From an uncultured Gammaproteobacteria bacterium (GTDB lineage: Bacteria > Patescibacteriota > Microgenomatia > JAMCZE01), in contig CAZSSJ010000001.1 of assembly GCA_964609775.1 (NCBI GenBank), forward strand, positions 22,858 to 86,857: a DNA stretch of 64,000 nt, in the 5' to 3' direction. A model generated the notes under the pieces. It searched no databases. It was not told where the DNA came from and saw only the letters and a program-made list of their open reading frames with translations. Below are positions 5,946 through 32,997 of this stretch, piece after piece; positions within the stretch are counted from its first letter, which is position 1, and each line of letters starts with the position of its first letter. The position numbers and the translations under genes were made by a program.

Positions 5946-8900
5946 GTGGATAGGAACAAAGCAAAGGGAAAGTACAAGAAGCTTTTAAAGATCGGCGAGG
6001 CTGCGGCTGTTCTTGGCGTTTCCATTGACACGCTGCGCCGGTGGGACCAGGAAGGCAAGTTGAGTTCAATTAAGACCCCCGGGGGGACGAGATATTACTC
6101 CCTGGGCGATTTGCGCAAGATTAACCCTGAAGTCGGGGAGATTATCAAAACAGAAAAGCAGGAAAGGGCGTTTGACCTGACAGCTCTTTCTGAGGAGGCG
6201 AGGCGGGAATATTTGGAAAGCCCGATTGGAAGCCGGGGTGGCCAGCTTGCTCGACCAGGTCAGTCAAAGCGCATCAGTGGGGTCAGTTACCCGAGTCAGG
6301 TGGCGAAAGAAGCAGAGGCTGGGCTTCGAGCGAGAAAGCTGGCCTTGGGGGCGGCTTTGGCTGCAGTTGTTATAGGGTTGGTAGCGACTGGGGTTGTGGC
6401 GCTTCGAGGGACAGGATTGTTTAGGGGGGATTTGGTGAAGACCGGGAGTGAGAGGGAAGGTGCGGGTGAGGTTCTAGCTATTACCGCAGGGAAGAGCTTT
6501 TTGGAGATCGGGGCGGAGACGGTGTTTAAGGATCGGGTCGACTTTGGCGGTTCGGCCGACGGCTTTTCCGTTTTTGGGGGAGACACGGTGTCGCGGCGGC
6601 TGACGGTGACGGGGGCGGATGTGGCCTTAGACCAATCTCTGACGGCATCGTCTTCGCCGACGTTTGCTTCTTTGAAGCTTAGCGGGACGAGTGATCAGAT
6701 TGTGGTTGGGGGAAACGGAACGCTGACTTGGACACCAACGGCGGCGCGGACGGTGACATTTCCCGACGCGACTGGAACGGTTGTTCTGGACACGGCCACT
6801 CAAACCCTGTCAAACAAGTCACTTTCCGGATCAAGTAACACCTTCACGAACATTCCGAATTCGGCGCTGTCGAACTCGAAGATTACCATCAATGCGGGAA
6901 CAAATCTGGGAGGCGGAGGGGATGTGTCCTTGGGATCGAGTGTAACCATTGACCTGGATGACGCTATTTCCCTGACGTCGGCGACTTTTTCCGGGACGCT
7001 GGGGGTCGGGGGAACGGCTTCGGTCGGCGGGCAGATCATTCTTGACGGAGCGACCGCGGAGATTAACGCCACGAATAACCGGCCGCTGGACTTGGGGTTT
7101 GAGAACACCGGGGCGGTGCGGTTTTTGAACTCGACCAACTATGTTGACAGCAATAATAACTTGTATATCAACGGAGTGTTGGTCGCGGGGCCGACGACAC
7201 AAGGTTATTGGCAGAGGAATTCCGGGGCTTTGGCCCCGACGAATATTACGGACTCTTTGGTCGTCGGGGGGACGGCGACGGCGTCGGGAAAGTTTCAAGT
7301 CTACGGACTGTCGGCTCTTAATCCGGTGGCGAGCATTTCGGGGAGTTCATCGAAGGCCGCGTTCATCGTAGATAACACTGTTGGGGATTTGTTTACCGCT
7401 TCCTCCTCCGGCCTCAACCGTTTTGTGATTACCCAGAATGGAAATGTGGGGATTGGGACAAGCGCTCCGGCCTATAAGCTCGATGTCAACGGGTCGACGA
7501 ATATTGCTAATGGGTTGACGATTGCGGCCGGGAACTTGACTTTGACCGGGTCGCAGTCAATTGACGCGACGGGGATTTTGTCCATCGGGACTTCTAACCA
7601 AACATCGCTTCTTATCGGCCGGGTTGGGGCGCCGACGACGATCTACGGCTCGTCGGTGACGATCAGCTCGAGCACGTTTAGCTCCAATGCGGCGACGATT
7701 TCCGGGACGCTCGGCGTCGGGGGCGAAGCTTCGTTTTCGGCCAAAATTATTCTGGATTCGCCAACCTCGGAGATTAATGCCACGAACAGGCGCTATTTGG
7801 ATCTGGGGTTCATGAACACCGGCGGCGTGCGCTTTCTTAATGACACAAACTACATCACTCCGAGCGGGGATCTGTATTTAGCCGGCAGTTTGATCAGTTC
7901 CGGGACACAGGCGGGCTTCTGGCAGCGGCCGGCGAGCACCGGAGCCCTGGCCCCGATAAATATTACTGACTCACTGCTGATCGGCGGCACGGCGACAAGT
8001 TCAGCAAAATTTCAAGTCTATGGTCTCTCAGCGTTAAATCCGGTGGCGTCAATTTCGGCTTCGTCGGCAGTCGCCGGGCTCATGGTGGACAACACCGTCG
8101 GGGATTTGTTTACGGCAAGCTCATCGGGCTTAAACCGGTTTGTGATTACCCAGAATGGAAATGTGGGGATTGGGACGACGGCTCCAGTTGGACTGCTTGA
8201 TGTCGCGGCAACGGCCCCCTTCGTTATCACTTCGGCGGGCCAGGTCGGCATCGGGACGACGAGCCCGGTGGGACTTCTTCATGTTCAGGGAGCGTGTGTC
8301 ACGGGAGACACGCTGATTCGAGTCCGGCGTAGGAAGAAGAAGAAAAATGGTGACTGGGAAGATGAATGGCTTGATTTGCCAATTAAGCAGCTTAAGGCGG
8401 GGGATGAAGTGATGACACTGGATGAAAGGACGGGGGAGTTTACTACCTCAGTGGTTCGGGAACTCATGGACAAAGGGATTAAAACGACCTTTAAACTGAT
8501 GACCGCTGACGGCAAATCCATCCGGACAACAGCGGAACATCCTTATTTGGTGCAGGAAAGTGGCAGCCCGGACAGTAATTTCCTCTCTGGACTGACTTTT
8601 GCTTCAGTGAAAAAGATCTCCCAAGATTACTATTTCACTGTCTTGTCGGGCCGGAAGGTGGCTGTTAAAGCATTGGACGGCGAGATTGTGCATTTCACTA
8701 GCGAAGGGTTCTCTCATATTACTCACGAGAAGAAGAGCGAATTTGAAATAATGACGAGACTTTTTGCTCTGTCTAAAGTTTTGACGGTTCTGGAAACAGG
8801 TGTCAAAGTTTCTCAGAAAGACAGAAAGATCGTTAACGGCAAAGTTAATGATTATTGGACTTTGGAGGAAGTTGTTGAGGGCGTTTTAACTAAAGTTGTT

Positions 8901-11900
8901 GTCAGGTCGATTGAGGACGGGCCGAAGCAATTTTTGTCAGTTGTTTGGAAGGATAAGACTCCGGAAGCCACAAAAAATGTGGGGGACGTTGCCTCTCGCA
9001 TATTGCAGCGACGTGGACGAATGGTTACGTCTCAACGTAGGGCCCACGAGAAGTTTTATACCACAATTCTGGCCGATTTGTCAAGAGGGGTCTGGGGATA
9101 TAGAGGGATTTCCTTAGCGCAAGACTTAGTTTCCAAAAAGAAATGGGTTAAAGTGCGGTTTTTGAAACCCGGCATGGAGATCGCTACTTTCGGGCCTGAT
9201 GGCCGAATTTCCTGGCAGAAGATTGAGTCCATTGAGAAAGTGGGAGAGGAGCAGGTTTATGACATCGAAGTGGAAAACACTCACAATTTTGTGGCCGGGC
9301 ACTATATAGACAACACCAACCAGAGGGCCCTAATTTCACAGGAAGGAGAGATTCTACTTCGTTATCTGTCTTTTGAACAAAAGGAAGCCGAGGAACAGGG
9401 CGATCATGACCAAAGCAAAACCAATTTGGAAACGATTGAAAAATTCTGTCAGGTCAATCATGATTTTTTGCTCCAACTGTCCAAAATAACCGCCGACAGT
9501 AGACAAATTGTAGCCGAACCAATATTGCCTGTCAACACCCAGGCGTCCTTAATGGCGAAAAGTCCCAAGAGCAGTCCGGCTGCCAAGTCGATAAATAAGG
9601 AAGAAAAAATCTTGAGAACGGAAACCCTCATCGAGGAGAGTATAGAAAAGGTGGAGAACCTTGTCAATCGTTACAGGAAAGGCGAAATTCGGTTCGGTGG
9701 CATTGTGGCGCATAACACGACGGGGAAGGCATTGGTGGATCTGAACTACACCGGGACGGATCAGGCAATTTTGACAGCTTCTGTTTCGGGGACCACGAAA
9801 TTTGTCATTAACAATTCCGGTCAAGTGGGAGTGGGAACCGGAGCAAACAACAATACTTTGCTGGCGGATGTGGATTTGCGGACGCTGACGAACACGGTTC
9901 CGGTGGCTTCAATTGCCGGAAGCACGGGAGTGGCAGCCTTGGTGGTGGACAACGTTTCCGGGGATTTATTTACAGCCAGTAGTTCGGGTTTGAGTCGTTT
10001 TGTGATAGATAGGGGAGGGAATGTGGGGATTTCCTCGACGGCGCCGTCACAGAAACTGGACGTGGTTGGGGCGGTGCGGTTGGGAGCTAACGGGGGGGCC
10101 AATGACATTTTGAACACGACGGTTGGGGGAAGTGCCCCGAGCGGGGTTTTGTATTGGGGAAACAGGACGCTGTGTGACACTTCCGGCAACTGTTCGGGAG
10201 TCGGGGGGATTGTGGCCGGGAGCGGAGTCCAATATTACATTAGCAAATGGACTGATGCTTCCGGCACGACAATCGGCGATTCACTGCTGTATGACCCGGG
10301 CACGTCGGTGGGACTCAACACCACCTCGCCGGCGGCGATTTTTGACATTCGGGGCACGCAGGGAACTTCGGCTCTCTCCGGGACTTTGCCGGTGGCCAGC
10401 ATTTCCGGGAAAACAAGTTTTGCGGCGGTGGTGGTGAACAACGATTCGACGGTCGGGGACCTCTTCACGGCTTCGGCGTCGGGGTTAAGCCGGTTTGTCA
10501 TCACCAATACGGGCAACGTGGGCATTGGCACGGCACTTCCGGCCCAGTTGCTCTCGGTCGCCGGGGCGATCCAGTTAGGGAGCGGTTTGGGAGCAAATGA
10601 TGTTCTGAATACTGCTGCTGCCGGGGGGGTGCCGTCGGGACTGCTCTATTGGGGCAGCCGGGAAGTCTGTGATGCTTCGGGCAACTGCGCCGGAGTGGGC
10701 GGGCAGGTCCAGGGGACGGGAACCCAAAACTATATTACCAAGTGGAACAATGCCGGGGGAACGGCGATCGGGGATTCGCTGCTGTATGATTCCGGCTCGG
10801 CGGTGGGTCTGGGAACAACCTCGCCTTTGGGGACACTCCATGTGGTTGGGCAGTGCGTCGTCTCTGGCACAAGGATTCGGCGGCGACGCCGTCGCCGAGG
10901 CTATGGCGCCCGAGGGGCGGAAGAGTGGGTTGAGGAGGAAGTGCCAATTGAGGAGATTGAGCCGGACGATGAAATTGTGTCATTGAACGTTGAGAAGGGG
11001 CGGTTTGAGTGGCACAAGGTGGAAAAGACCCTTAATAAGGGGCTGCTTGCCGGGATGGCCCTTTCGACTTCGACGGGGAAGAGAATCGTGACCACGGGCA
11101 AACATCCATACCTGATGATCGACAAACCGGAAATTACTCAAGGGACTTTTGAGGTTGACCAATCGATTAAAGTGGAAGATTTGGGCAAGGCGACAATTGT
11201 GGGCTTTGCTTTGGGAAAACTGGCCTTTGCGGTGAAACTTCGACAACAGGACAAAAAGTTGATCCGTAGTGGTTTTCAGAAAGCCGGTAAGGAAGATCTC
11301 TTTGCTCCTTTGACCTTTGCCAATGTAGTGGTTAATCTCTTCCGGGCGGCCCAGATCTATCCGGCTAGAATCGCGCTTGATGAAGAATACACCGGCTTTT
11401 TCGGGGAGATTAAAGATATTATTAAAAAGTCCTTCCCGGATGCAGAGGTTTTTGAGACTAATCTGAAAGATTCTTCAGCTGCTCATCAAAGGGTCTGGGC
11501 GGTCAACAAAGGGAGAGCGAAAGAGGATGTCCTCTTGGTTCTTGAGGGCGGAGAATTAAAAGAAAGGCCGGGAGTTAAATCAACTCTGAGCGGAAGACCT
11601 TTGCCCCTGAATGGTTACAGGGGGACCAGTCAACCCATCGGCCTTTACTATGGTGAATTCTATCACCGAGGGGCGAATTTGTCAACCCCTTCGACAAGCT
11701 CAGGGTTGATAGCGAGAAAGACCGAGCTATCAAGGGCTCGATGGGCCAAAGCTGGAGATATTAGGGTCGGTCAGTATGTGGCGACGGAGGATGGGTTTGA
11801 GAAAGTGACGGGGATTTCTGACGCCGGCCGGGTGCTGATGTACGACCTTTCCGTTGCTAACACCCACAACTTCCTCGCCAACGGGATTGTGGCCCATAAC

Positions 11901-14900
11901 ACCGGGACGATGGCGATCGCGACGGTTTCGGGGGCGACGTCTTTTGCGGCCCTCACCGTGGATAACTCCGGCGTCGGGGATTTGTTTACGGCCAGTTCGT
12001 CTGGCTTAAACAGGTTCGTGATTACCCAGAACGGCAACGTCGGCATCGGGACGACGGCTCCAGTTGGACTGCTTGATGTCGCGGCAACGGCCCCCTTCGT
12101 TATCACTTCGGCGGGCCAGGTCGGCATCGGGACGACCTCGCCGGTGGGACTGCTGCATGTCCAGGGGGCGTGTGTGACGGGGGACACATTGTTGAAACGA
12201 CGGCGTAAGAAATGGCGGACACGCAGGTCCGCCCCTACGGAAATGGGACCGGATCCAGAAGGGGATGCTGAATCCACCAAAAAATCCGCTTACGCGGACT
12301 TGGTAAACCAGATCGGCTTGCTAAATGGCTGGCTTGATACCCTTACGGGTAATATATCAGATGGTGATGAAATTGTCAAGGATCAGATGGGCATGGACCT
12401 GCCGGGAGTTGAACCCGGTAGGCTTGGGGTATCAAGCCAGCCTAGCAAACCTGCCAGGCCCATGCCAATGAATAGTATAGCAGACGATGGTGACTATTAC
12501 TGGGAAGATGTGCGGATTGATGAAATTGAGGCGGGGGATGAAGTGATGACCCTGGATGAAAAGAGCGGGGAGTTTGTAGCCAGCACGGTTAAACAATTGA
12601 TGGTGATGGGGAATAAAAAGATCATTAAACTGACAACCGAGAGTGGAAAGACCATTCGGACAACGGAAAAACACCCTTATCTGGTCAAGGTCAAAGGAGA
12701 AAATCAGAAAACAGCCTTCGCTTTCATTGATGAAACAGGAATTACACTTGATCCCGGCCAACACCATCTTGGGGTGGGGGCTCTTAATAAAAAGGAGGAT
12801 GGTGCCTTAAAAGACACGTTTTGTCAAGGGGGAGGGAAGGTGTTTTGGCGTCAAGTTTCAACTCTCAAACCGGGAATGTTGATCGCGACAGTTGATGGCT
12901 TTGAGAAGATTATCAGGATTGAGGAACTGCCCGAGGAGATGGTTTATGACATTGAAGTGGAAAACACCCACAATTTTGTGGCCGGGCACTATGTCGACCA
13001 GGCTTCACAGACGGCGTTAAAAGCGGAGGAGGAAAAGTTTCTCTGTCTTTATCAACAAAACACGTTAACGAGAGAGTTTTCTCTTTTCGACCTTACCGAA
13101 GAAAATCCAAGCCAGAAAAAGGGCAATAAGCCCCAATCCAACTCCTATCCAGGCAGCGATATAAAATTGATCCAAAGTGGTGATCATATGTTTTCAAATA
13201 GCCAGTCTTCTAATTTGATGGCTATCCAGCTACAGAGCGTAGCAAAGATGAGGTTTGCTGTCAAGGCCAAGATGGGGTTGGACGAAGCGAATGATGCAAA
13301 AGCACCAAATATGAACCCAGTGGATAGGTTTGAGAGTATAGATGAAACTACCTTGACTTGGCTAGGGCGAATATTAAAAGAAAACTCCATTAACTTGACT
13401 TTAGACGAAGCGCTTTGTCTTATCAATAAATATGAGTCTGGGGAAATTGTTTATGGGGGCATTGTGGCGCATAACACGACGGGGAAGGCCCTGGCGAATC
13501 TGAACTACACCGGAACCGATCAGGCAATCTTTACAGCTTCTCAGGGAGGAGTGTTGAAGTTTTCTCTTAATGGCATCGGAACAGAGCATACGGCTTCGGT
13601 GGCGGGGACAACGTCTAAGGCGGCTCTGATTGTGGACAACACAATCGGGGATTTGTTCACGGCCTCGTCATCGGGCTTGGCTCGCTTTGTGATAACACAA
13701 AGCGGCAATGTGGGGATTGGGTCCGCCGCTCCCAGCGTCGCTCTGGATGTCACCGGAGCGGGGAAGACGAGTGGGGCCTTTACGGTGGGGAATAATTTGA
13801 CGGTGACGGCCGGGGGCCTCACGGTGACGGCCGGGAACATTGCCCTGACGGGGTCGCAGACGATTGACGGGACCGGGACGCTGACAATTGGCGGCACTTC
13901 GCAGACGTCGCTGGCGTTGGGGAGGAGCGGGGCGCAGACGACGATTTCCGGCGGGCCGGTGGTCGTCAACGGCGCTTCCTTTGCCTCGGCAGGGACAACG
14001 ACATTCACCGGCGGGAATGTGGGGATCGGGACGACGACGGTGACGGATTTTGCTTTGGAGATGGGCGGGAGCATCGGGCCGGTGACGACCGATCAATATG
14101 ATTTGGGGTCGGCCGCTCTCGAATGGAATAATTTGTATGTCAAAAACATTATTTCAACGGGGACGACGGCCGGATTTTGGCAGCGGGCGTCGGGGGTGCT
14201 GGCTCCGCAGAACATTACAGACTCGCTGATTATTGGCGGGACGGCAACATCCTCCGGGAAATTCCAAGTTTACGGCCTATCGGCTCTTAATCCAGTGGCG
14301 AGCATTTCCGGGTCTTCGGCAGTGGCCGCGCTTATGGTCGATAACACAGTGGGAGATTTATTTACGGCCTCATCGTCGGGACTAAATCGGTTTGTGATTA
14401 CTCAAAATGGAAATGTGGGGATTGGGAGCACGGTTCCTGTATCACGGCTTGATACAGGAGGAGGAACAATTTCACTTAATGGTGGGTGGTTGTCGAATGA
14501 TGGTGGAGCTGAAGGTGTGTTTGTTAAAACAGACGGGAATGTGGGTATCGGGACAAGTGCACCAGCCTATAGGCTTGATGTCGTCCACACCACACCGACT
14601 GCGGCAAATGGCAGTGTGTCACCAGATCAAATAGGATTGAGGGTTAACAGGGCCCACTATGTTGGGACCCCTGGACCCTACCCTAATGCTGTTTATGGCG
14701 TTTTGGGTCAAGGCCAAGCAGGTCAGGGGAGTGCCAGTGTGTCTTATTCCAATACGGTGGGTGCTAGAGGTGTGGCTGGACAAGCAATTGTCAATGTTAC
14801 GGGTGGTGCCAGTGTTACGGGTGCAAGTTCATTGTATGCGTTGAATGCTACGATTACTGCTGGAACTTTATCTAATCAATATGGATTATATGTTGAGTCG

Positions 14901-17900
14901 TTATCCGGGGCCTCCAACAATTATGGAGTTTATGTTGCTGGTAATAATTCCTCGTATTTTGGCGGCAACGTCGGCATCGGGACGACGAGCCCGGTGGGAC
15001 TGCTGCATGTCCAGGGGGCGTGCGTGACGGGGGACACCTTGTTAAAAAGACGACGGAAGCGGAAGAGCAAATATGGTGATTGGGAGGAAGACTATTGGGA
15101 AGACATTAGAATTGATGAGATCGAGGCGGGAGACGAAATATTAACTTTTGACGAAACCACTGGCGGATTTACTGCTTCTCAGGTTAGGGAGCTTATGGAT
15201 ATGGGTAAAAAGACCACGTTTAAGTTGGTAACGGAGGGCGGAAAGGAAATTCGGACGACAGCGAACCATCCTTACTTGGTCAAGTCAGCCAATACGAGTA
15301 ATTTCTTCAATGAGACTTTTAAAGTTGTGGCAGAAATTGCCAGGGCCTATTACTTTGCCACTTTAACGTCCTGGGATCCGATTGCTCCGGCCCTGAATAA
15401 TGAGAGAATAAGTATTTCTGAGGAAGGATGGCATCATCTTCATCATAAAGCCAGAAGCAGGGGAGAAATGTTGACGAGGTATTTTGCACTTCCCAAAGCG
15501 GCCGCTCTTCTTGCCAGCAAAGAAGCTCGCGTGACTTATGAACCCGGTGGGGATGGGGTCTCCGAGTTTTGGTCCCTTTATGGAACAGTTGATGATGTTC
15601 AGGTTAAGGTGGTTGTCCGATCAGTCAATAAAGGTCCGAAGTACTTTTACTCTGTCATCTGGAAGAGCGAAGTTAAAGAAGACACTAAAAAAAGAGCTGC
15701 CTCCTGCTTGTATCCGCAGTGTGGGGGAGTGATTACCCCTCAGCTCTTTAATGAGAGGATTATAGACCAGATGAGTGACTTTGTCAAGAAACGAAAGAGA
15801 GACTACCAGCTGGGCTCGTATCTCTCTGGGGAAGATTCTACTACTAAGTGGGTGAAAGTCAAACAATTAAAGCCCGGGATGGAAATTGCCACGGTGGGCG
15901 GGGATGACCAGATTTCTTGGCAGAAGATCAAATCTATTGAAAAAATCGGGGAAGAACAAGTCTTCGACATCGAAGTGGAAAACACCCACAATTTTGTGGC
16001 CAATGGGATTGTGGCGCATAACACGACGGGGAAGGCCTTGGCGAATTTGAACTATACGGGGACGGATCAGGCGATTTTCACCGCTTCGCAGGGGGGAACG
16101 TTGAAGTTTGCTTTGAATGGGACGGGGACGGATTTTACCGCCAGCGTCGCCGGGACGACTTCGAAGGCGGCTCTCATTGTGGACAACACCGTCGGGGATT
16201 TGTTTACGGCCAGCTCCAGTGGCTTAAACAGATTCGTGATTACCCAGAATGGAAATGTGGGCATTGGAATGGCGACGCCTTCTGCTACATTGGAAGTTAG
16301 AAAAGGTCCAATTCCCTCAACATTTGATTCATCTCTTGCTCTCTATTCTGCTGGTCAGTTTGTCAACACGAACACTAACTGGTATGACACGGAATTAAAT
16401 TTACTTGATACTAGGGACCAAGCTGCAGGAGTTGGCGGAAGGCTTGCTTTCGGTGGCGTTTATAGACAAGTTGGGACTACCAATGTAACAACCTTTGCGG
16501 CGATTGGCGGTTATAAAGAGAATTCTACTAGTGGTGATTATGCTGGATATCTCTCGTTTGAAACCAGACCTAACGGTGGAATTTTTACTGAACAGATGAG
16601 AGTTTCTAGTGCTGGCAACGTCGGCATCGGGACGACGAGCCCGGTGGGACTGCTGCATGTTCAGGGGGCGTGCGTGACAGGGGATACTCTGATTCGAGTA
16701 AGACGGCGCAAGAAGAAGAAGAATGGCGAGTGGGAAGATGAATGGCTGGACGTTCCCATTAAAGATATTCAAGCTGGGGACGAAGTGGCCACTCTGGACG
16801 AAAAGACGGGAGAATTCATCGTCTCCAAGGTTAAACAATTAATGAACATGGGGAGAAAAGTGGTCTTTGAACTTTTGACTGAGTCAGGAAAAGTCGTTAA
16901 AACTACAGAAAATCATCCGTATTTGGTTGACCAATCAGGGAAACAAATGGTCTCTGATCTCAGTGCTATCCAGAAGGAAACTTATGAGTTTGCTGAGAAG
17001 TTAGGAAAGAAATACTATGTGAACAACTTGGCTGGCAGGAAGGTTAAGTCTAGGGCTTTGGGCGAATTTGTCGAGTTTAGTCATTCTGGCTGGAACCATT
17101 TTGTGGAGAAAAGCCATTCAATTAATGAACTTATTACTCGATTCTTTGCTTTGCCTCGGGTGGTTACAGTTATCAGATCTAGTCCCCATGTCACTTCATA
17201 TAACATAGTCGAGAAAAAAGACATGACGATTGAATATTGGGAGTTGCAGGAAATTATTGACCATGTTCTTGTTAAAGTTCTAGTCTGCGCTGTTGATGGT
17301 GGACCGAAGTTTTTCTTGACGTGCACTTGGCTCGGGACAAAAGAGAATGAAGGGGTCAAACCAACTAAAAAAGAGCTGTCTCTCTCGCCTAGATCCCGCG
17401 AAATGCAGGACCAGTTGGGTCGACGTCGGGAACTGGTTATCCCTCAGCTCTTTAGTAGGGTGATTATACCAAAGAAAGTCAAGTGGGTCAAGGTCAAGGA
17501 TTTGACTGTAGGTGTGACTATTGCTACCAAAGATGGCTGGGAGAAAGTAGTTTCCATTAAAAAATTGGATGAACAACAAGTTTATGACATTGAAGTGGAA
17601 AACACCCACAATTTCGTGGCCAATGGGATCGTGGCGCATAACACGACGGGCAAGGCCTTGGTGGATCTGAACACCACCGGAGATCAGGCGGTCTTTACGG
17701 CTTCAGTTTCTGGAACGACGAAATTTGTGATTAACAATTCGGGGCAGGTGGGAGTAGGGACGGGGGCAAACAACAATACCCTTTTGGCGGATGTGGATTT
17801 GCGGACGCTGACAAACACTGTACCGGTGGCTTCAATTTCCGGAAGCACCGGAGTGGCAGCATTGGTGGTGGACAATGTTTCCGGCGATGTGTTTACGGCG

Positions 17901-20900
17901 TCAACTTCGGGATTGAGCCGGTTTGTGATTGACAAGAACGGAAATGTGGGGATCGGGAGTTCGGCTCCAGGATACAAACTGGATGTTTCGGGAACGGCTC
18001 ATGTCACCGGAGCAGTCACTTTAGATACGGCCCTGACGGTGGCCAATGGGGGGACGGGAGCCCAGACATTCACAGACAACGGCGTGCTCTTTGGCAACCT
18101 GACGGCCGCCATTGGAGCGACGGCCGAAGGAGCGACCGGGCAGTGCCTCATCGGGAACACCGGGAGCGCGCCATCATGGTCAGCATGTACCACGGCCTCA
18201 GGGCAGTTGTGGCAGGAAGCTTTGGGAGTGGTCGCGCCGCTGAACATCACGGATTCCCTGATTATTGGGAAGATCGCGACACCCAGCGGGGCCATTACCT
18301 CGGGCAGCATGCAGATTTACGGGGTGAACAACCTGACCCCGGTCGCCTCTATTTCGGGGGTCAGTGCGGTGGCGGCGCTCATCGTGGACAACACCGGCGG
18401 GGATGTCTTCACGGCCAGCACTTCGGGACTGACCAGATTTGTGATTGACAAGAACGGCAACGTCGGGATTGGGACAACGAGCCCGGATTATCCACTTGTA
18501 GTAGTAGGGACAGCTTCTGACGGAACACGGACACTTGAGGTAAAAAATTCAGTTGCTGGTAGTATATCTAATTTCCAAGTAACAGGTGATGGTGTCAACG
18601 CTCGCCTTATGGCGTTGTCTAGTTCGTATTCATCATCCGGGGCTTATGCTGCTGATACAGTTGTCTTAGACGACGATCAGGGTTACGCTGCTGGCCTTAC
18701 ACTACTTGCCCGTAATTCAAGTGGGTATATCCGAATGTTTACAGGCGGTTTTGATGACGGAAATGAGCGTCTGAGAATTAACAGCACTGGCAACGTCGGC
18801 ATCGGGACGACGAGTCCGGTGGGACTGCTGCATGTTCAGGGACAATGCGTCATTGCCGGAACAAAAATTAAAAGAAGAAAGAAGAAAGAAAAAAGAAGAA
18901 AGCAAGACACTGCCGGAACGGGGCCGGATCCGGTCGGCGATTGGGACTATGAAGATGTTCCCATCGAACAGATCGAACCGGATGATGAGATTCTTTCCCT
19001 AAACCAGGAAAAGGGCCAGTTTGAGTGGCACAAGGTGGAACAAACCATGAATAAAGGACTCCTGCCGGCCTTGGCTCTGACAACTTCTACTGGAAAGAGA
19101 ATTGTCACGACGGCAAAACATCCATATTTGGCGATCGATCGGCCGGAAACTACTCAAGGGACTTTTGAGGTGGATCAATCAATCAAGATCGAGAATTTGG
19201 GGGCGGCAAGCATTATAGGGTTTGCCCTGGGGAAACTAGCTTTTGCCGTTAAGCTGCCGCAGAAGGATAAGAAGATTATTCTCGCTCGTTATCAGAAGAA
19301 GAACCAAAAAGATGTTTTTGCCCATGAGACTTTTGCCCGATGTGTGGTTGCCGCCTTTAAGATTGCCCGGATTTATCCAGCGAGAATTGCTCTCGATGAA
19401 GAATACACCAGTTACTTCCGAAGAATCGAGAGCGTTATTAAGGAAAGTTTCCCTGACAGCGAGATTTTTCAAACCAACCTTAAGGATGGTTCCGCCGCCC
19501 ACAAAAAGGTCTGGGCTGTTAATAGGGGAATTTTAAGAGAGGATGCTGTTCTAAGTTTGGAATCGGGAGAATTAAAAGAAAGGCCGGGGGTTAAATCAAC
19601 CTTCAGAATGCCTTTGCCCCTGGTTGGTTACAGGGGGACCAGTCATCCACACGGCCTTTACTATGGAGAATTCTACTCCACGGAGCGGGAATTGTCAAGA
19701 GCAAAGTGGGTTAAGGCCGCGGAGGTTAGGAAAGGGATGTGTGTGGCGACGGAGGATGGTTTTGAGAAGGTCACAGGGATTTCCGATGCGGGGCAGGTGG
19801 CGATGTATGATCTGCAAATTGCCAACACTCACAATTTTGTGGCCAATGGGATTGTGGCGCATAACACGACGGGGAAGGCCCTGGTGGATCTGAACACCAC
19901 CGGGGACCAGGCGGTGTTCACCGCCAGTGTTTCCGGAAACACCAAGTTTGTGATTAACAATTCAGGACAGGTGGGAGTGGGAACCGGAGCAAACAACAAC
20001 ACGCTGCTGGCCGATGTGGATTTGCGGACGCTGACAAACACGGTTCCGGTGGCTTCAATTGCCGGGAGCACGGGGGTGGCGGCTCTGGTTGTGGACAATA
20101 CAGCCGGGGATCTTTTCACCGCCTCGTCAAGTGGGCTATCAAGATTTGTGATTGACAAGAACGGGAATGTGGGGATTGGGACGGCGGCGCCGACGGCTCT
20201 GGTGTCTTTAGCTAACTCGAACTATACGACGCAAAACATGTTGAACGTGGCGGGGACGTCGACAGGGTTGACGACCGGGTCACTGGCGAGTTTTGACTGG
20301 AGTCCGACGGACTGGTCGACCTCGAGCGGGAATTTGGTGAATATTAATCTTGGCAGTTTGGCCGACACGACGGGAAACATCTTTAATATTTCCGATGACG
20401 GCAGCTCGATCTTCTCGGTTTCGCCGCAGCAGATTGTCAACTCGTTGCCAACGTCATTTAATGCCGCCGGAGATGTGGCGATTGCCTATGACATTAATTT
20501 CACCAATCCGACGGCATCATACATTAAATCTGCTGCACCCATGTATTTGCAGGCAGGGGAGCTATTTAATTCCTCGGATTTGACGTTGAAGACCTTTAAC
20601 AAAGGCTTGATTGTTCTGGATCCAGATGAAGCGGTCACAATTGATGGGGCGGCTTCTGTGTCGGGGCAGCTCATGGTCGGCAGTACGACAGCGGCGCCGG
20701 CGCAGTTTGGCAAGTTCTATGTGACGGACTCTAACACGGCCACTTCTTCAGCCTTCATTGAAAACACTAACACAGCTGCAGCAATTTCGGGTTTGGTCAT
20801 TAAGCTGGGGAGTACGACCCTGGACACCACCTCGCATTTTGTTAATTTTCTTGATTTGAACGGCAAGATGATTGGCAACATTCGGGCAGCTAACACGACA

Positions 20901-21923
20901 ACGGTTGCTTATCAGACAAGCGGAATTGCGGATTTTGGGGAATGGATGAAAGTTTCTTCGGATTTGACTAATTTGTCTAATTGGACCAATTTGGTTTCTC
21001 CGGGGACGATTGTTTGTCAAAGCGCGGATGGGGTGGAGCCCTGCGAGGCGAGTGAGTCGGCGAGGATGGCGGGGGTGACTTCTGACACGACGGCGTTTTT
21101 GGGAGGAGAGGAGAAAGACGGAAGCGTGGTTGTCGGAATGTTGGGACAAATTCGAGTGAAGATCGCAACGGACTCAGCGCAAATTGAGCCGGGTGACGCG
21201 ATTGGGGTGGCGATCGCCGGTTTGGGAAAGAAAATTACGTCACGGGGATATGTGGTCGGCCGGGCGATGGAATCATGGTCCTCCGGACAAGAGAAAGTCT
21301 TAGTTTATGTCAACCCCGGTTACTTTGAGGGCCCCGAGTCGCAGCTGGCGTCGAAACTCTCGGTGGATGAGATTCAGGAACAGGTGGCGTCGATCAGTGC
21401 AAATTTGACTAATTTGTCTAATTGGTCCAATTTGAACAGCGACGAATTTGCGACGGTTTCGGGAAACCTGAAAGTTTTGGGAATGACGGAGCTTTCCAAC
21501 ACGACGATTGGCGGGTCGCTCACTGTGGGACTGGTCCATGTTGATGATTTGCTGGGCGATGTTTCCGGTTTGAATGGGAGTTTGAGTTTGCAAAACGGGA
21601 TGCTGACAATTAGTCAAATTGGACAAATTGGTCAAATTGGGGTTAACGGCGATTTGACAGTTTCCGGGGAGTTGACGGCGAAGAAGATTAACGTGCCGAC
21701 GGGAGTGGCTGGGGCCTCGGCGGGCAAGGCGACGATTCTTGCTGGACAAAGCGAAATTGAGATTACGACCAGCGCGCTTAGTGCTAATTCCTTGATTTTT
21801 GCGACACCGGAAGACGTGCCGGTGGCCGTCTCGACGACCAAGACAGCGACAGACAAGTTTAAGATCAAACTGGACTCCCCTGCGGGGGCAAACATCAAAA
21901 TTAATTGGTGGATAATCAATTAG
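5946..21923 (+). CDS. Giant (5325-aa precursor) repeat-rich putative surface/adhesin-like protein hosting six inteins. N-terminal MerR/excisionase-type HTH segment followed by a predicted TM helix; the body is made of about 50-aa repeats (GDLFTASSSGLNRFVITQNGNVGIGTT.P).
   Basis: One uninterrupted 15,978-nt frame; highly iterated Gly/Thr/Ser-rich repeat; intein blocks A (C[VI]TGDTLI), B (T.EHPYL), F/G (YD[IL].VENTHNF[VL]ANGIVAHN) six times; ends in TAG. Confidence 0.85.
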   Translation: MDRNKAKGKYKKLLKIGEAAAVLGVSIDTLRRWDQEGKLSSIKTPGGTRYYSLGDLRKINPEVGEIIKTEKQERAFDLTALSEEARREYLESPIGSRGGQLARPGQSKRISGVSYPSQVAKEAEAGLRARKLALGAALAAVVIGLVATGVVALRGTGLFRGDLVKTGSEREGAGEVLAITAGKSFLEIGAETVFKDRVDFGGSADGFSVFGGDTVSRRLTVTGADVALDQSLTASSSPTFASLKLSGTSDQIVVGGNGTLTWTPTAARTVTFPDATGTVVLDTATQTLSNKSLSGSSNTFTNIPNSALSNSKITINAGTNLGGGGDVSLGSSVTIDLDDAISLTSATFSGTLGVGGTASVGGQIILDGATAEINATNNRPLDLGFENTGAVRFLNSTNYVDSNNNLYINGVLVAGPTTQGYWQRNSGALAPTNITDSLVVGGTATASGKFQVYGLSALNPVASISGSSSKAAFIVDNTVGDLFTASSSGLNRFVITQNGNVGIGTSAPAYKLDVNGSTNIANGLTIAAGNLTLTGSQSIDATGILSIGTSNQTSLLIGRVGAPTTIYGSSVTISSSTFSSNAATISGTLGVGGEASFSAKIILDSPTSEINATNRRYLDLGFMNTGGVRFLNDTNYITPSGDLYLAGSLISSGTQAGFWQRPASTGALAPINITDSLLIGGTATSSAKFQVYGLSALNPVASISASSAVAGLMVDNTVGDLFTASSSGLNRFVITQNGNVGIGTTAPVGLLDVAATAPFVITSAGQVGIGTTSPVGLLHVQGACVTGDTLIRVRRRKKKKNGDWEDEWLDLPIKQLKAGDEVMTLDERTGEFTTSVVRELMDKGIKTTFKLMTADGKSIRTTAEHPYLVQESGSPDSNFLSGLTFASVKKISQDYYFTVLSGRKVAVKALDGEIVHFTSEGFSHITHEKKSEFEIMTRLFALSKVLTVLETGVKVSQKDRKIVNGKVNDYWTLEEVVEGVLTKVVVRSIEDGPKQFLSVVWKDKTPEATKNVGDVASRILQRRGRMVTSQRRAHEKFYTTILADLSRGVWGYRGISLAQDLVSKKKWVKVRFLKPGMEIATFGPDGRISWQKIESIEKVGEEQVYDIEVENTHNFVAGHYIDNTNQRALISQEGEILLRYLSFEQKEAEEQGDHDQSKTNLETIEKFCQVNHDFLLQLSKITADSRQIVAEPILPVNTQASLMAKSPKSSPAAKSINKEEKILRTETLIEESIEKVENLVNRYRKGEIRFGGIVAHNTTGKALVDLNYTGTDQAILTASVSGTTKFVINNSGQVGVGTGANNNTLLADVDLRTLTNTVPVASIAGSTGVAALVVDNVSGDLFTASSSGLSRFVIDRGGNVGISSTAPSQKLDVVGAVRLGANGGANDILNTTVGGSAPSGVLYWGNRTLCDTSGNCSGVGGIVAGSGVQYYISKWTDASGTTIGDSLLYDPGTSVGLNTTSPAAIFDIRGTQGTSALSGTLPVASISGKTSFAAVVVNNDSTVGDLFTASASGLSRFVITNTGNVGIGTALPAQLLSVAGAIQLGSGLGANDVLNTAAAGGVPSGLLYWGSREVCDASGNCAGVGGQVQGTGTQNYITKWNNAGGTAIGDSLLYDSGSAVGLGTTSPLGTLHVVGQCVVSGTRIRRRRRRRGYGARGAEEWVEEEVPIEEIEPDDEIVSLNVEKGRFEWHKVEKTLNKGLLAGMALSTSTGKRIVTTGKHPYLMIDKPEITQGTFEVDQSIKVEDLGKATIVGFALGKLAFAVKLRQQDKKLIRSGFQKAGKEDLFAPLTFANVVVNLFRAAQIYPARIALDEEYTGFFGEIKDIIKKSFPDAEVFETNLKDSSAAHQRVWAVNKGRAKEDVLLVLEGGELKERPGVKSTLSGRPLPLNGYRGTSQPIGLYYGEFYHRGANLSTPSTSSGLIARKTELSRARWAKAGDIRVGQYVATEDGFEKVTGISDAGRVLMYDLSVANTHNFLANGIVAHNTGTMAIATVSGATSFAALTVDNSGVGDLFTASSSGLNRFVITQNGNVGIGTTAPVGLLDVAATAPFVITSAGQVGIGTTSPVGLLHVQGACVTGDTLLKRRRKKWRTRRSAPTEMGPDPEGDAESTKKSAYADLVNQIGLLNGWLDTLTGNISDGDEIVKDQMGMDLPGVEPGRLGVSSQPSKPARPMPMNSIADDGDYYWEDVRIDEIEAGDEVMTLDEKSGEFVASTVKQLMVMGNKKIIKLTTESGKTIRTTEKHPYLVKVKGENQKTAFAFIDETGITLDPGQHHLGVGALNKKEDGALKDTFCQGGGKVFWRQVSTLKPGMLIATVDGFEKIIRIEELPEEMVYDIEVENTHNFVAGHYVDQASQTALKAEEEKFLCLYQQNTLTREFSLFDLTEENPSQKKGNKPQSNSYPGSDIKLIQSGDHMFSNSQSSNLMAIQLQSVAKMRFAVKAKMGLDEANDAKAPNMNPVDRFESIDETTLTWLGRILKENSINLTLDEALCLINKYESGEIVYGGIVAHNTTGKALANLNYTGTDQAIFTASQGGVLKFSLNGIGTEHTASVAGTTSKAALIVDNTIGDLFTASSSGLARFVITQSGNVGIGSAAPSVALDVTGAGKTSGAFTVGNNLTVTAGGLTVTAGNIALTGSQTIDGTGTLTIGGTSQTSLALGRSGAQTTISGGPVVVNGASFASAGTTTFTGGNVGIGTTTVTDFALEMGGSIGPVTTDQYDLGSAALEWNNLYVKNIISTGTTAGFWQRASGVLAPQNITDSLIIGGTATSSGKFQVYGLSALNPVASISGSSAVAALMVDNTVGDLFTASSSGLNRFVITQNGNVGIGSTVPVSRLDTGGGTISLNGGWLSNDGGAEGVFVKTDGNVGIGTSAPAYRLDVVHTTPTAANGSVSPDQIGLRVNRAHYVGTPGPYPNAVYGVLGQGQAGQGSASVSYSNTVGARGVAGQAIVNVTGGASVTGASSLYALNATITAGTLSNQYGLYVESLSGASNNYGVYVAGNNSSYFGGNVGIGTTSPVGLLHVQGACVTGDTLLKRRRKRKSKYGDWEEDYWEDIRIDEIEAGDEILTFDETTGGFTASQVRELMDMGKKTTFKLVTEGGKEIRTTANHPYLVKSANTSNFFNETFKVVAEIARAYYFATLTSWDPIAPALNNERISISEEGWHHLHHKARSRGEMLTRYFALPKAAALLASKEARVTYEPGGDGVSEFWSLYGTVDDVQVKVVVRSVNKGPKYFYSVIWKSEVKEDTKKRAASCLYPQCGGVITPQLFNERIIDQMSDFVKKRKRDYQLGSYLSGEDSTTKWVKVKQLKPGMEIATVGGDDQISWQKIKSIEKIGEEQVFDIEVENTHNFVANGIVAHNTTGKALANLNYTGTDQAIFTASQGGTLKFALNGTGTDFTASVAGTTSKAALIVDNTVGDLFTASSSGLNRFVITQNGNVGIGMATPSATLEVRKGPIPSTFDSSLALYSAGQFVNTNTNWYDTELNLLDTRDQAAGVGGRLAFGGVYRQVGTTNVTTFAAIGGYKENSTSGDYAGYLSFETRPNGGIFTEQMRVSSAGNVGIGTTSPVGLLHVQGACVTGDTLIRVRRRKKKKNGEWEDEWLDVPIKDIQAGDEVATLDEKTGEFIVSKVKQLMNMGRKVVFELLTESGKVVKTTENHPYLVDQSGKQMVSDLSAIQKETYEFAEKLGKKYYVNNLAGRKVKSRALGEFVEFSHSGWNHFVEKSHSINELITRFFALPRVVTVIRSSPHVTSYNIVEKKDMTIEYWELQEIIDHVLVKVLVCAVDGGPKFFLTCTWLGTKENEGVKPTKKELSLSPRSREMQDQLGRRRELVIPQLFSRVIIPKKVKWVKVKDLTVGVTIATKDGWEKVVSIKKLDEQQVYDIEVENTHNFVANGIVAHNTTGKALVDLNTTGDQAVFTASVSGTTKFVINNSGQVGVGTGANNNTLLADVDLRTLTNTVPVASISGSTGVAALVVDNVSGDVFTASTSGLSRFVIDKNGNVGIGSSAPGYKLDVSGTAHVTGAVTLDTALTVANGGTGAQTFTDNGVLFGNLTAAIGATAEGATGQCLIGNTGSAPSWSACTTASGQLWQEALGVVAPLNITDSLIIGKIATPSGAITSGSMQIYGVNNLTPVASISGVSAVAALIVDNTGGDVFTASTSGLTRFVIDKNGNVGIGTTSPDYPLVVVGTASDGTRTLEVKNSVAGSISNFQVTGDGVNARLMALSSSYSSSGAYAADTVVLDDDQGYAAGLTLLARNSSGYIRMFTGGFDDGNERLRINSTGNVGIGTTSPVGLLHVQGQCVIAGTKIKRRKKKEKRRKQDTAGTGPDPVGDWDYEDVPIEQIEPDDEILSLNQEKGQFEWHKVEQTMNKGLLPALALTTSTGKRIVTTAKHPYLAIDRPETTQGTFEVDQSIKIENLGAASIIGFALGKLAFAVKLPQKDKKIILARYQKKNQKDVFAHETFARCVVAAFKIARIYPARIALDEEYTSYFRRIESVIKESFPDSEIFQTNLKDGSAAHKKVWAVNRGILREDAVLSLESGELKERPGVKSTFRMPLPLVGYRGTSHPHGLYYGEFYSTERELSRAKWVKAAEVRKGMCVATEDGFEKVTGISDAGQVAMYDLQIANTHNFVANGIVAHNTTGKALVDLNTTGDQAVFTASVSGNTKFVINNSGQVGVGTGANNNTLLADVDLRTLTNTVPVASIAGSTGVAALVVDNTAGDLFTASSSGLSRFVIDKNGNVGIGTAAPTALVSLANSNYTTQNMLNVAGTSTGLTTGSLASFDWSPTDWSTSSGNLVNINLGSLADTTGNIFNISDDGSSIFSVSPQQIVNSLPTSFNAAGDVAIAYDINFTNPTASYIKSAAPMYLQAGELFNSSDLTLKTFNKGLIVLDPDEAVTIDGAASVSGQLMVGSTTAAPAQFGKFYVTDSNTATSSAFIENTNTAAAISGLVIKLGSTTLDTTSHFVNFLDLNGKMIGNIRAANTTTVAYQTSGIADFGEWMKVSSDLTNLSNWTNLVSPGTIVCQSADGVEPCEASESARMAGVTSDTTAFLGGEEKDGSVVVGMLGQIRVKIATDSAQIEPGDAIGVAIAGLGKKITSRGYVVGRAMESWSSGQEKVLVYVNPGYFEGPESQLASKLSVDEIQEQVASISANLTNLSNWSNLNSDEFATVSGNLKVLGMTELSNTTIGGSLTVGLVHVDDLLGDVSGLNGSLSLQNGMLTISQIGQIGQIGVNGDLTVSGELTAKKINVPTGVAGASAGKATILAGQSEIEITTSALSANSLIFATPEDVPVAVSTTKTATDKFKIKLDSPAGANIKINWWIIN
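8295..9716 (+). mobile_element. Intein 1 (474 aa) in the giant protein. It has a long internal uncharacterized domain and about 140 aa inserted between block F (NTHNFVAGHY) and the terminal GGIVAHN.
   Basis: Starts with Cys of ...HVQGA|CVTGDTLIRVRRRKKKK, contains TTAEHPYLV, ends ...GGIVAHN|TTGKAL. Frame verified against the host ORF. Confidence 0.8.
10854..11900 (+). mobile_element. Intein 2 (349 aa); second subfamily (CVVSGTRI...EWHKVE...; internal domain with IYPARIALDEEYT)
   Basis: ...HVVGQ|CVVSGTRIRRRRRRRG...GKHPYLM...YDLSVANTHNFLANGIVAHN|TG. Confidence 0.8.
12171..13475 (+). mobile_element. Intein 3 (435 aa); same subfamily as intein 1, including the insertion before GGIVAHN.
   Basis: ...HVQGA|CVTGDTLLKRRRKKW...TEKHPYLV...YDIEVENTHNFVAGHYVD...YGGIVAHN|TTGKAL. 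Confidence 0.8.
15021..16022 (+). mobile_element. Intein 4 (334 aa)
   Basis: ...HVQGA|CVTGDTLLKRRRKRKSKYGDWEED...TANHPYLV...FDIEVENTHNFVANGIVAHN|TTGKAL. Confidence 0.85.
16671..17642 (+). mobile_element. Intein 5 (324 aa)
   Basis: ...HVQGA|CVTGDTLIRVRRRKKKKNGEWEDEW...TENHPYLV...YDIEVENTHNFVANGIVAHN|TTGKAL. Confidence 0.85.
18846..19865 (+). mobile_element. Intein 6 (340 aa); same subfamily as intein 2.
   Basis: ...HVQGQ|CVIAGTKIKRRKKKEKRRK...AKHPYLA...YDLQIANTHNFVANGIVAHN|TTGKAL. Confidence 0.8.
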
Positions 21924-21971
21924 GCTGGCTTGCCCTGAGCTTGTCGAAGGGTGGATTGTGAATTAACGAAA

Positions 21972-28104: not shown

Positions 28105-28201
28105 GCTCGACAGCTGAGGGTGAATGTTGTTTTCAGCTCGCGGCTGCGGGCCTAAACCAAGGAAGCGCAGTTAGATTTGGACCCAATACGGGGGCGCCTT
28201 A
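28105..28201 (+). pseudogene. Orphan 3'-terminal remnant duplicating the last ~30 codons of the upstream LamG gene (…ECCFQLAAAGLNQGSAVRFGPNTGAP*)
   Basis: Translation in frame gives NQGSAVRFGPNTGAP-stop, against NQSSAVRFGPSSGAP-stop at 28020..28067. Confidence 0.6.
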
Positions 28202-32993: not shown

Positions 32994-32997
32994 ATCT

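Follow-up and report, generated by a model that had tools for sequence, protein, structure and literature searches.

The 64,000-nucleotide (nt) stretch of DNA analysed here (the window) carries on its plus strand, at 5946..21923, a giant precursor gene that starts with GTG and that, according to both the list of open reading frames (ORFs) and the translation, forms a single uninterrupted ORF of 5325 amino acids (aa). The gene belongs to a groundwater Microgenomates/Gottesmanbacteria bacterium, a member of the candidate phyla radiation (CPR), for which exact sequence matches give the name Microgenomates group bacterium GW2011_GWA1_48_10 / Candidatus Gottesmanbacteria, and the repeat-rich product, in which six inteins are embedded, is predicted to be an envelope or fibre-like protein. 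The inteins lie, on the plus strand like every other feature of the gene given below, at 8295..9716 (intein 1 or I1, 474 aa, residues 784-1257), 10854..11900 (I2, 349 aa, residues 1637-1985), 12171..13475 (I3, 435 aa, residues 2076-2510), 15021..16022 (I4, 334 aa, residues 3026-3359), 16671..17642 (I5, 324 aa, residues 3576-3899) and 18846..19865 (I6, 340 aa, residues 4301-4640). The Pfam family PF14890 (Intein_splicing) matches all six segments at 52.4-77.1 bits, above its gathering cut-off of 35.8 bits (I1 54.6, I2 57.5, I3 52.4, I4 77.1 and I5 75.3 bits), and TIGR01443, which describes the intein C-terminal region, passes in all six as well. TIGR01445, for the N-terminal region, passes in I1, I3, I4 and I5 and finds no match in I2 or I6. 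By a pattern scan, the six inteins sum to 2256 aa, or 42.4% of the ORF, and their removal in silico leaves a mature product of 3069 aa. An earlier reading of this DNA (the original prediction) had proposed six inteins in the one ORF, with 2256 of its 5325 aa (42%) in inteins and 3069 aa after splicing, and had suggested a search with Hint and intein profiles; the profile search bears out the six, and the figures are reproduced exactly.

The residues expected of working inteins are kept throughout. In the six-way alignment, C1, T78/T79, H82, the Asp (D323) and THNF of block F and the final AHN are invariant, and each terminal Asn is followed by a +1 Thr. Furthermore, hidden Markov models (HMMs) built from the N- and C-lobes of these inteins find exactly six of each in the 5946-21923 ORF and none elsewhere in the window. 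By sequence, 4o1r and 1mi8, both active DnaB mini-inteins, come closest among the solved structures, and the other matches in the PDB are inteins of DnaX, DnaE and RadA. The division into two subfamilies that was originally seen, with I1, I3, I4 and I5 in one (A) and I2 and I6 in the other (B), is upheld by alignment, divergence and distances alike: in the splicing lobes, aa identity is 56-83% among the members of subfamily A, while I2 and I6 are 67-72% identical to each other. Minor differences occur in block F, where I4 has FD instead of YD, and I2 and I6 have ANTHNF instead of ENTHNF.

The blocks A, B and F/G, which had been read directly in all six inteins, are indeed all present, but F and G, contiguous in I4, are not so in I1 and I3. 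Here insertions of 134 aa (I1, 9297-9698) and 158 aa (I3, 12984-13457) lie between THNFVA and GIVAHN, leaving both blocks intact, in the layout THNFVA-GHY[IV]D...GEI[RV][FY]G-GIVAHN. The same module is found in at least nine other loci (L004, L008, L019, L020, L024, L025, L036, L038 and L048), where its ends are conserved as GHY[IV][ND]RKTGKAL..EE..Y and D[IL][EV][YF]GG and its middle, of 40-230 aa, is highly variable and often of low complexity; given this recurrence with conserved ends, the F-G module marks a subtype of the family rather than damage. The start of the insertion in I1, GHYIDN followed by T, also resembles a degenerate second block G. A further feature common to all six inteins, and to most of their relatives, is a run of Arg and Lys immediately behind block A, which gives way to an acidic stretch of Trp, Glu and Asp (e.g., RRRKKKKNGDWEDEW). 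The basic runs lie at 8325-8345 in I1 (RRRKKKK), 10878-10898 in I2 (RRRRRRR), 12195-12212 in I3, 15045-15065 in I4, 16701-16721 in I5 and 18870-18902 in I6 (KRRKKKEKRRK). The basic and acidic stretches may form a charge-paired beta-hairpin, for which DNA binding, a block to export or some other role is possible; in I3 (~85 aa), in I6 and in some relatives, a long variable insert separates the two halves.

Each intein is inserted after GNVGIGTTSPxGxLHVxG(A/Q) and before Thr. The original prediction held that all six share one flanking motif. This is the case for five, which have the N-side motif and are followed by a C-extein beginning TTGKAL; in I2, the C-extein reads TGTMAIATVSG... and the N-side motif is more diverged (SAVGLGTTSPLGTLHVVGQ). 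Upstream of I1, the N-extein flank consists of a conserved 57-nt sequence (8238..8294) that encodes G(N/Q)VGIGTTSPVGLLHVQGA; the equivalent flanks end at 12170, 15020, 16670 and 18845, and the diverged one, that of I2, at 10853. There are 18 copies of the GNVGIG motif in the gene. All six copies of the LHV type are occupied, whereas the other 12 (LDV, LSV, LEV and VVV) are all empty, which agrees with the claim that the inteins sit at one position of paralogous host repeat copies. The empty target site can be reconstructed as ...GGACTGCTGCATGTTCAGGGGGCG on the N-side joined to ACGACGGGGAAGGCCTTGGTGGAT... on the C-side.

Excision in silico restores the register of the host repeat, as had been anticipated. 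Ligated junctions, e.g., GNVGIGTTSPVGLLHVQGA joined to TTGKALVDLNTTGDQAVFTASVSGTTKFVINN, align gaplessly to the intein-free homologues P0063, P0070 and P0074 and to an ORF of L055, homologues of the kind that the original prediction had proposed to look for; at the junction, P0063 reads GNVGIGTSSPIGLFNLSGG VTGKALAILNQTGNQDILTASTSGTTKFVINN. For the divergent I2 site, an empty paralogue is found inside the same protein (SVGLNTTSPAAIFDIRGT QGTSALSGTLPVASISGKTSF). Splicing would thus produce ligated-junction peptides such as VSSAGNVGIGTTSPVGLLHVQGATTGK.

Hint domains need not splice, and it might be postulated that those in this protein merely cut it in the manner of the bacterial intein-like (BIL) and PT-HINT modules, or that each excised intein, with its nuclease-like domain and its poly-Arg/Lys tract, is released at the cell surface as an effector directed at host or competitor cells. 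BIL and PT-HINT modules usually lack a +1 nucleophile and act by cleavage. Their hosts are said, in the work of Amitai et al. of 2003 and in the polymorphic toxin literature, to be secreted, variable proteins of the surface type, as the present host also seems to be, and like it, these large variable secreted proteins sometimes carry several Hint modules. I5 scores above the PT-HINT cut-off (34.2 versus 27.7 bits), with weak matches in I1, I3 and I4, while the domains nested in the inteins are varied and of the kind found in biological conflict (NYN, RNase H-fold and LPD3, the last from polyvalent proteins of phages and plasmids); the polybasic tract, in turn, might be likened to cell-penetrating peptides. 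However, the Intein_splicing score exceeds the PT-HINT score for every copy, the Hint modules are not followed by a toxin domain, and the neighbourhood contains no obvious immunity gene. All six possess the +1 nucleophile and every residue needed for splicing, and the two exteins of each form a continuous module that is uninterrupted in the homologues, something that cleavage alone would not preserve. The original prediction had named loss of catalytic residues as the sign of BIL-like autoprocessing; C1, His-Asn and the +1 Thr are instead kept in six of six, and BIL-type cleavage was rejected on Thr+1 and on the continuity of the host module. Autoprocessing or effector release therefore seems quite improbable. 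The collinear junctions of the intein-free homologues, taken with the universal +1 Thr, favour splicing over cleavage of the BIL type, and they support the assignment of the six segments to canonical inteins of the class-1 type; from the sequence, we infer that all six would undergo protein splicing.

A gene so rich in repeats invites the objection that inteins from several genes or strains were joined by the assembler through collapsed repeats, an outcome that the original prediction had listed as a refutation. Four independent records (two MEGAHIT assemblies, GCA_001003415.1 and GCA_001780905.1), which come from different samples and were built by different assemblers, contain the same predicted product of 5325 aa, and this indicates that it is not a chimera. 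Over the first 9361 nt of the gene, L143 and L144 are identical to the window and L146 and L147 differ by 1 nt, so that the four assemblies show 0-1 mismatches. In addition, exact repeats within the gene reach no more than ~89 nt, and between repeat copies, identity over 240 nt does not exceed 87%. In the ANAN16 scaffold_216 (L078/L145, ENA ERZ28564264), there are 173 extra nt near 7381-7459, within the repeat, giving the variant '...TGNVGIGTTTPGGLLAIKESVVGASAYPIIVTNENGGQI' and a shifted frame, which reflects either a repeat array that differs between strains or an error of scaffolding. Most relatives of the inteins, moreover, are on short, broken contigs. One of these, the 283-aa fragment P0001 from another data set, matches the end of I5 (window 17400-17642) plus its C-extein at 99% identity before passing into the extein found downstream of I1 (9717-10200), a sign either that repeat units have recombined in a related strain or that this short contig is chimeric. 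Despite these three observations, the repeat lengths and the agreement of independent assemblies led to the rejection of an assembly chimera, and the chance that the six-intein gene is such an artefact is practically negligible.

How, then, did one gene come to hold six inteins? One view would be that one or two ancestral inteins were duplicated passively along with the host repeat and, with no later mobility, persisted only owing to the difficulty of removing them precisely. Diverged direct repeats abound in the host gene, and I2/I6 and I1/I4 are, by distance, mutual nearest relatives. I1 and I3 have ~210 nt of their upstream exteins in common, both contain the rare F-G insertion, and their synonymous divergence (pS; ~0.47-0.50) is the lowest of all pairs, so that these two are probably true segmental duplicates. 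Overall, pS between the inteins is ~0.47-0.9 and exceeds 0.67 for most pairs; given this synonymous saturation, the copies represent ancient lineages rather than a recent intragenic burst. Judged by their divergence, the inteins are old and their splicing lobes are under purifying selection. Their flanks are far less diverged: the 57-nt upstream sequences of I1 and I3-I6 are 83-97% identical at the nt level. In I4, I5 and I6, the sequences resemble each other for only ~60 nt upstream of the junction; further out, similarity is random and they are unrelated. I5 and I6, which belong to different subfamilies, lie in closely related C-exteins that share more than 330 nt at ~80-90% identity, and I4 and I6 have an identical run of 45 nt across the C-junction, 30 nt of which belong to the end of the intein and 15 nt to the start of the extein.

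Distances to inteins elsewhere tell a similar story. The nearest relative of I5 is an intein from Falkowbacteria, I3 is equally close to inteins of other phyla and to I4, and the subfamily A inteins of the window are as distant from each other as from those of other phyla; occupancy of the site is patchy across phyla, and alleles lacking an intein are known. The GC content at third codon positions is 0.47-0.55 in the inteins, lower than in most extein segments (0.50-0.77). On the flank, pS and junction-tract patterns, simple co-duplication was rejected as the sole origin, and passive co-amplification as a whole, although it has to be reckoned with, appears unlikely. Instead, the identity of the flanks and the pattern of divergence favour repeated copying at the DNA level, by homing or by ectopic gene conversion with short junction tracts, over co-duplication alone. 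The original suggestion of intragenic homing is thus retained in part. The flank analysis argues for mobility of the DNA, but the family inhabits dozens of genomes, the copies are ancient and the inteins contain no recognised homing endonuclease.

Candidates for a driver of this mobility are the domains nested between the splicing lobes. In I2 (~11145-11564, located by domain alignment) and I6 (~19161-19580), the core is a domain with the motif FEVDQS, predicted to have an RNase H-like fold, since the modelled structure contains the beta-beta-beta-alpha-beta-alpha-beta-alpha core. The centres of I2 and I6 are 68% identical, with nonsynonymous divergence (pN) of 0.21 versus a pS of 0.73, and all six sequences aligned share E13, D15, E21, D89 and H124. 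When the nested domain of I6 was used alone in a word-indexed protein search, nothing was found. An exhaustive profile search, by comparison, yielded 737 cluster representatives, the best 146 of which comprise 44 within intein-containing giant proteins and 102 free-standing proteins of ~150 aa; 90-99 of these 102 retain the motifs DQS, ID.EY and S..AH. The free-standing relatives have no match in Pfam, NCBIfam or PHROGs, and they are predicted to be RNase H-like by homology to the modelled I6 centre. Members of this family (P0219, P0240, P0255, P0204, P0300 and ~100 more) have the pattern M..EIDQSGKIE...ID.EY.G...IGK.SPAH. One of them (L141:5001-5453) adjoins genes for leucyl-tRNA synthetase (LeuRS) and ComEA/ComEC, followed by a 110-aa ORF, a context that is uninformative. 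The capture of a free-standing family at the canonical position of the endonuclease is what the homing-endonuclease model would lead one to expect.

The other inteins carry different domains. Weak matches to LPD3 (PF18798) are found in the centres of I1 (~8550-9155, E=0.0029) and I5 (16926-17480, E=0.028). The centre of I4 (15279-15860) gives no LPD3 match when searched alone and is LPD3-like by alignment with I1 and I5, with which it shares invariant YY, G..H, E..TR.FAL, W.L and GPK.F...W. With a third weak match in the relative P0002, there are three independent matches of this kind, which make LPD3 a lead only. In I3, the centre is a 52-aa remnant (12684-12842), recognised by BLASTP against P0004, of a DUF3800-like domain. 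It keeps ~25 residues (FAFIDETG...) of the start of the nested domain of P0004, and ~185 aa are missing; the domain of P0004 itself has a weak full-length match to DUF3800 (PF12686; 15.9 bits versus a cut-off of 21). The remnant looks like a decayed stage of the homing cycle. Elsewhere, inteins of relatives contain nested NYN domains. Profile-profile comparison revealed no relation of the RNase H-fold domain to either the LPD3-like or the DUF3800-like one. The nested domains are regarded as putative nucleases.

The six inteins are part of a much larger family. A protein search with I5 gave 59 hits, mostly partial, from Parcubacteria, Microgenomates, WWE3, other CPR bacteria and some DPANN archaea, and in genomes, sampled at one per species, 76 loci were found, mostly CPR. 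In all, inteins of this family are found at the same motif in dozens of genomes of CPR, DPANN and Omnitrophota, often several per protein. The family site is constant, with GNVGIGTTxPxxKLHVEGQ before the intein (CVTGDT.LRRRRR ... HN) and TY(I/L)xGNVGIGTT after it, and a +1 Thr is present at 33 of 33 homologous intein ends. The type of site seen in the window (...HVxGA before the intein, TTGKAL..N.TGDQ after it) also holds inteins in Falkowbacteria and further Patescibacteria (L002, L003 and L021). Across loci, His at -5 is found in 42 of 47 occupied versus 32 of 185 empty copies of the motif, and Gln at -1 in 37 of the 47 occupied copies and in 6 sites scored as empty, 3 of which are really occupied. 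Other ORFs with multiple inteins include one with four in L007 (a WWE3 protein) and those with three in L006, L048 and L008; six per protein is the maximum seen, with at most four in the other proteins sampled. The hallmarks of the family are the polybasic/acidic hairpin after block A, the variable nested domains and the optional F-G insertion.

Family members are also found at other sites in giant proteins of CPR bacteria, which implies several classes of target. Such inteins lie after '...PE' in Pro/Gln-rich linkers, between ...GSSTQ and TAF.V.S.GNVGIGTT, and between ...ANSF[RQ]VGQ and TAF (L005, L009, L019, L034, L016, L048, L040 and L050). On viral contigs, full-length relatives were seen on two short contigs only, in both cases in a protein of the GNVGIGTT type, which leaves a phage vector conceivable. 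In a Ca. Daviesbacteria genome (L008:18744-18813, minus strand), ARAGORN identifies a tRNA-Glu(CTC) antisense within the in-frame F-G insertion of an intein ORF. The peptides GNRTP and GIEP[ST], which correspond to the translated reverse complement of a tRNA T-arm, recur in variable loops of the inteins of P0183, P0010, P0051 and P0007, which suggests that tRNA-derived repeat elements have been inserted in frame in this intein family; no peptide insertion of the GNRTP/GIEP[ST] type was seen in the window.

Taken together, these results have led to the following model, to which we assign a probability of roughly 0.68: the six segments are selfish inteins of a family of CPR and DPANN, which leave behind a 3069-aa fibre after six class-1 splices, which have spread by homing or gene conversion and whose probable drivers are the nested nuclease-like domains. 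In this model, the gene would be expressed as a membrane-anchored 5325-aa precursor that is interrupted by the six class-1-type inteins. An N-S acyl shift at Cys1, trans-esterification to Thr+1, cyclisation of the terminal Asn and an O-N shift would then yield the 3069-aa mature protein and six free inteins. The many copies of the target motif in the host gene would allow the element to reach several paralogous sites, being copied by homing or ectopic gene conversion via the conserved ~57-nt upstream sequence and the ~45-nt sequence that spans the junction. As the nuclease responsible for mobility, the best candidates would be the nested domains, i.e., the RNase H-fold domain in I2 and I6, the LPD3-like domain in I1, I4 and I5, and the NYN and DUF3800-like domains in relatives. 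The decayed remnant in I3 is what would be expected late in a homing cycle.

It should be noted that several points weigh against this model. None of the six inteins has a LAGLIDADG or HNH match in Pfam or NCBIfam at E<=1, and with no recognised homing endonuclease, a mechanism driven by an endonuclease is deduced rather than seen. In the RNase H-fold domain, a Gln follows the first Asp, at the position where RNase HII has its second acidic residue. The LPD3 scores (I1 18.2, I5 15.0 and P0002 21.5 bits) are below the cut-off of 27, and an AlphaFold2 model of the LPD3-like centre of I5, made from a 4-sequence alignment, has a pLDDT of 47.6 and is unusable. Concerted evolution of the host repeats alone could account for the homogeneity of the flanks. 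Moreover, no copy of the exact target is left empty in the window gene, so ongoing homing is not visible there. In the scaffold_216 version, the gene is split into ORFs of 551 and 4832 aa, all six inteins being in the latter. Finally, if the C-terminal part of the protein, amounting to 5100 residues, is exported co-translationally, splicing would take place outside the cell, and the polybasic tracts would hinder transport by Sec; to our knowledge, splicing by canonical inteins outside the cell is without precedent.

A different proposal is that the inteins have been domesticated and that conditional splicing, dependent for example on redox state or compartment, delays folding or trimerisation of the fibre until after export, or generates isoforms. 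The splicing domains are under strong purifying selection despite their great age, a single structural position of the repeat has been kept across phyla, and the extra features (the polybasic/acidic hairpin and the F-G insertion with its conserved ends) are conserved. Purifying selection on splicing is, though, expected for any intein in a needed protein. The sporadic distribution with its many empty sites and intein-free homologues, the decay of the nested domain in I3 and the variability of the nested nuclease-like domains are typical of selfish elements and hence argue against domestication, which we regard as improbable. It is also conceivable, given splice junctions that are nearly identical and lobes that are parted by large nested domains, that the N-lobe of one intein would pair with the C-lobe of a later one, thereby removing everything between them. 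Such cross-splicing would create fibre isoforms; this, and/or a role of the excised inteins as surface effectors of an episymbiont-type cell, must be considered a long shot. The rival explanations are not independent of one another, and the confidences placed in them overlap in part.

Inteins are usually seen as rare single insertions in conserved replication or repair enzymes, mobilised by LAGLIDADG or HNH endonucleases. The present inteins resemble those of class 1 (Npu and Ssp DnaB; 4o1r, 1mi8) in the Hint signature, Cys1, TxxH, the block F Asp/His, His-Asn and the +1 hydroxyl nucleophile, as well as in their in-frame insertion in conserved host sequence, their sporadic distribution and the existence of empty alleles. 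They differ in that the host is a non-housekeeping, repetitive protein that is predicted to be extracellular, that the six copies occupy paralogous copies of one site, and that they have the polybasic/acidic hairpin and an optional F-G insertion of 40-230 aa and lack LAGLIDADG and HNH. With homing inteins of the PI-SceI type, they share a nested domain between blocks B and F, free-standing relatives of that domain, a decayed copy (I3) and conserved junction flanks that are compatible with co-conversion; the nested domains of the window and its relatives (RNase H-fold, LPD3-like, DUF3800-like and NYN), in contrast, do not belong to recognised families of homing endonucleases. The difference from BIL and PT-HINT modules lies in the retention of Thr+1 and all splicing residues and in the lack of a downstream toxin domain.

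The published maxima of inteins per protein that were found are four and, in Anaeramoeba Prp8, five (PMC10710043), so the number six is exceptional, as originally claimed. In the known multi-intein proteins, Trichodesmium RIR1 (4), archaeal MCM (4) and Anaeramoeba Prp8 (5) (PMC2874743, PMC10710043), all of the inteins must likewise splice for the mature protein to form, but each is at its own unique site of an enzyme, whereas the six of the window are at the same position of a repeat. A parallel to that arrangement is offered by the ciliate BUBL genes, which Dassa, Yanai and Pietrokovski reportedly described in 2004 and in which each ubiquitin-like repeat is followed by a BIL-like autoprocessing domain. 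There too, a module of the Hint type recurs at the same position of tandem repeat units; it is said to be part of the duplicated unit and to cleave or ligate the ubiquitin-like units. Of the 18 motif copies in the window gene, no more than 6 contain an intein, and the flanks argue against simple co-duplication.

In the literature searched, there is no account of inteins in surface proteins of CPR, Patescibacteria or Parcubacteria or of inteins with nested NYN domains, and neither the intein family nor the six-copy case has been described there. What emerges is an intein lineage that has made a short, repeated motif its special target, in giant surface proteins that evolve fast, and that has spread through much of CPR and DPANN. 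Its nested domain families (RNase H-fold, NYN, DUF3800-like and LPD3-like) had not been linked to inteins in that literature, and two of its structural add-ons, the hairpin with its polybasic run and the F-G insertion, are new. The gene offers a natural system in which to study spread among paralogous sites, splicing in exported proteins and cross-splicing in tandem; furthermore, diverged inteins that accept a common junction (G-A/Q before, T-T/Y after) could serve in multi-fragment protein ligation. If the proposals of cross-splicing or effector release are true, inteins would have a function at the level of the host in the surface biology of CPR and DPANN.

The remainder of the precursor gives some indication of the nature of the host protein. 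At its N-terminus (aa 13-58, 5982..6119) is a helix-turn-helix (HTH) of the MerR/HTH_17 type, which matches PF00376 with 46.4 bits and PF13411 with 31.6 bits, both above cut-off, and which is predicted to be cytoplasmic. Direct reading shows that the homologous giant proteins P0172, P0199, P0175 and P0202 begin with the same HTH, and both this start and the '...NWWIIN' end are common to the homologous giant proteins. A single hydrophobic segment (LALGAALAAVVIGLVATGVVAL, aa 132-153, 6339..6404), read from the sequence, is a putative membrane anchor; with the basic residues RARK preceding it, everything downstream of this segment would be extracellular. There follow, in the spliced protein, ~2900 residues of repeats built around GNVGIGT..P. 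In the C-terminal extein, a stretch at 20868..21110 resembles Peptidase_G2, an intramolecular chaperone-like family, though weakly (PF11962, E=0.0011, 18.9 bits versus a cut-off of 25), and Peptidase_S74 (PF13884) is present in several related intein hosts. The Peptidase_G2-like stretch hints at a host protein that is tail-fibre-like and possibly trimeric; comparison of the C-terminal extein with PDB sequences gave only noise.

The neighbouring genes include those for an F-type ATP synthase, a giant LamG/DUF2341 protein, dockerin and cohesin proteins, an amylase and LeuRS, and the F-type ATP synthase, LeuRS and other neighbours indicate a chromosomal location. Scans of the window for tRNA genes and Rfam families were empty. 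The next gene (21951-28067) encodes a 2038-aa protein with DUF2341, six LamG domains and a long Gly-rich tract of low complexity; its length varies by assembly (2003, 2007 or 2031 aa, or three genes in GCA_001003415.1), which makes it a second variable giant surface gene. Cohesin/dockerin and Big_7 proteins are encoded at 29619-34257. Past the surface-protein cluster, on its downstream side, are two genes for AAA_14/DUF4143 ATPases, in a region with genes at 28199-29320 (minus), 36358-37566 (plus) and 37737-38414 (minus), and gene calls on matching contigs place AbiEii-family genes there as well, so that this region is possibly a defence or mobile neighbourhood. Consistent with a single replichore that has neither origin nor terminus within the window, GC skew is positive in nearly all 2-kb bins of 1-64000, the cumulative skew rises almost monotonically from 0.38 to 5.9, and most of the long genes are on the plus strand.

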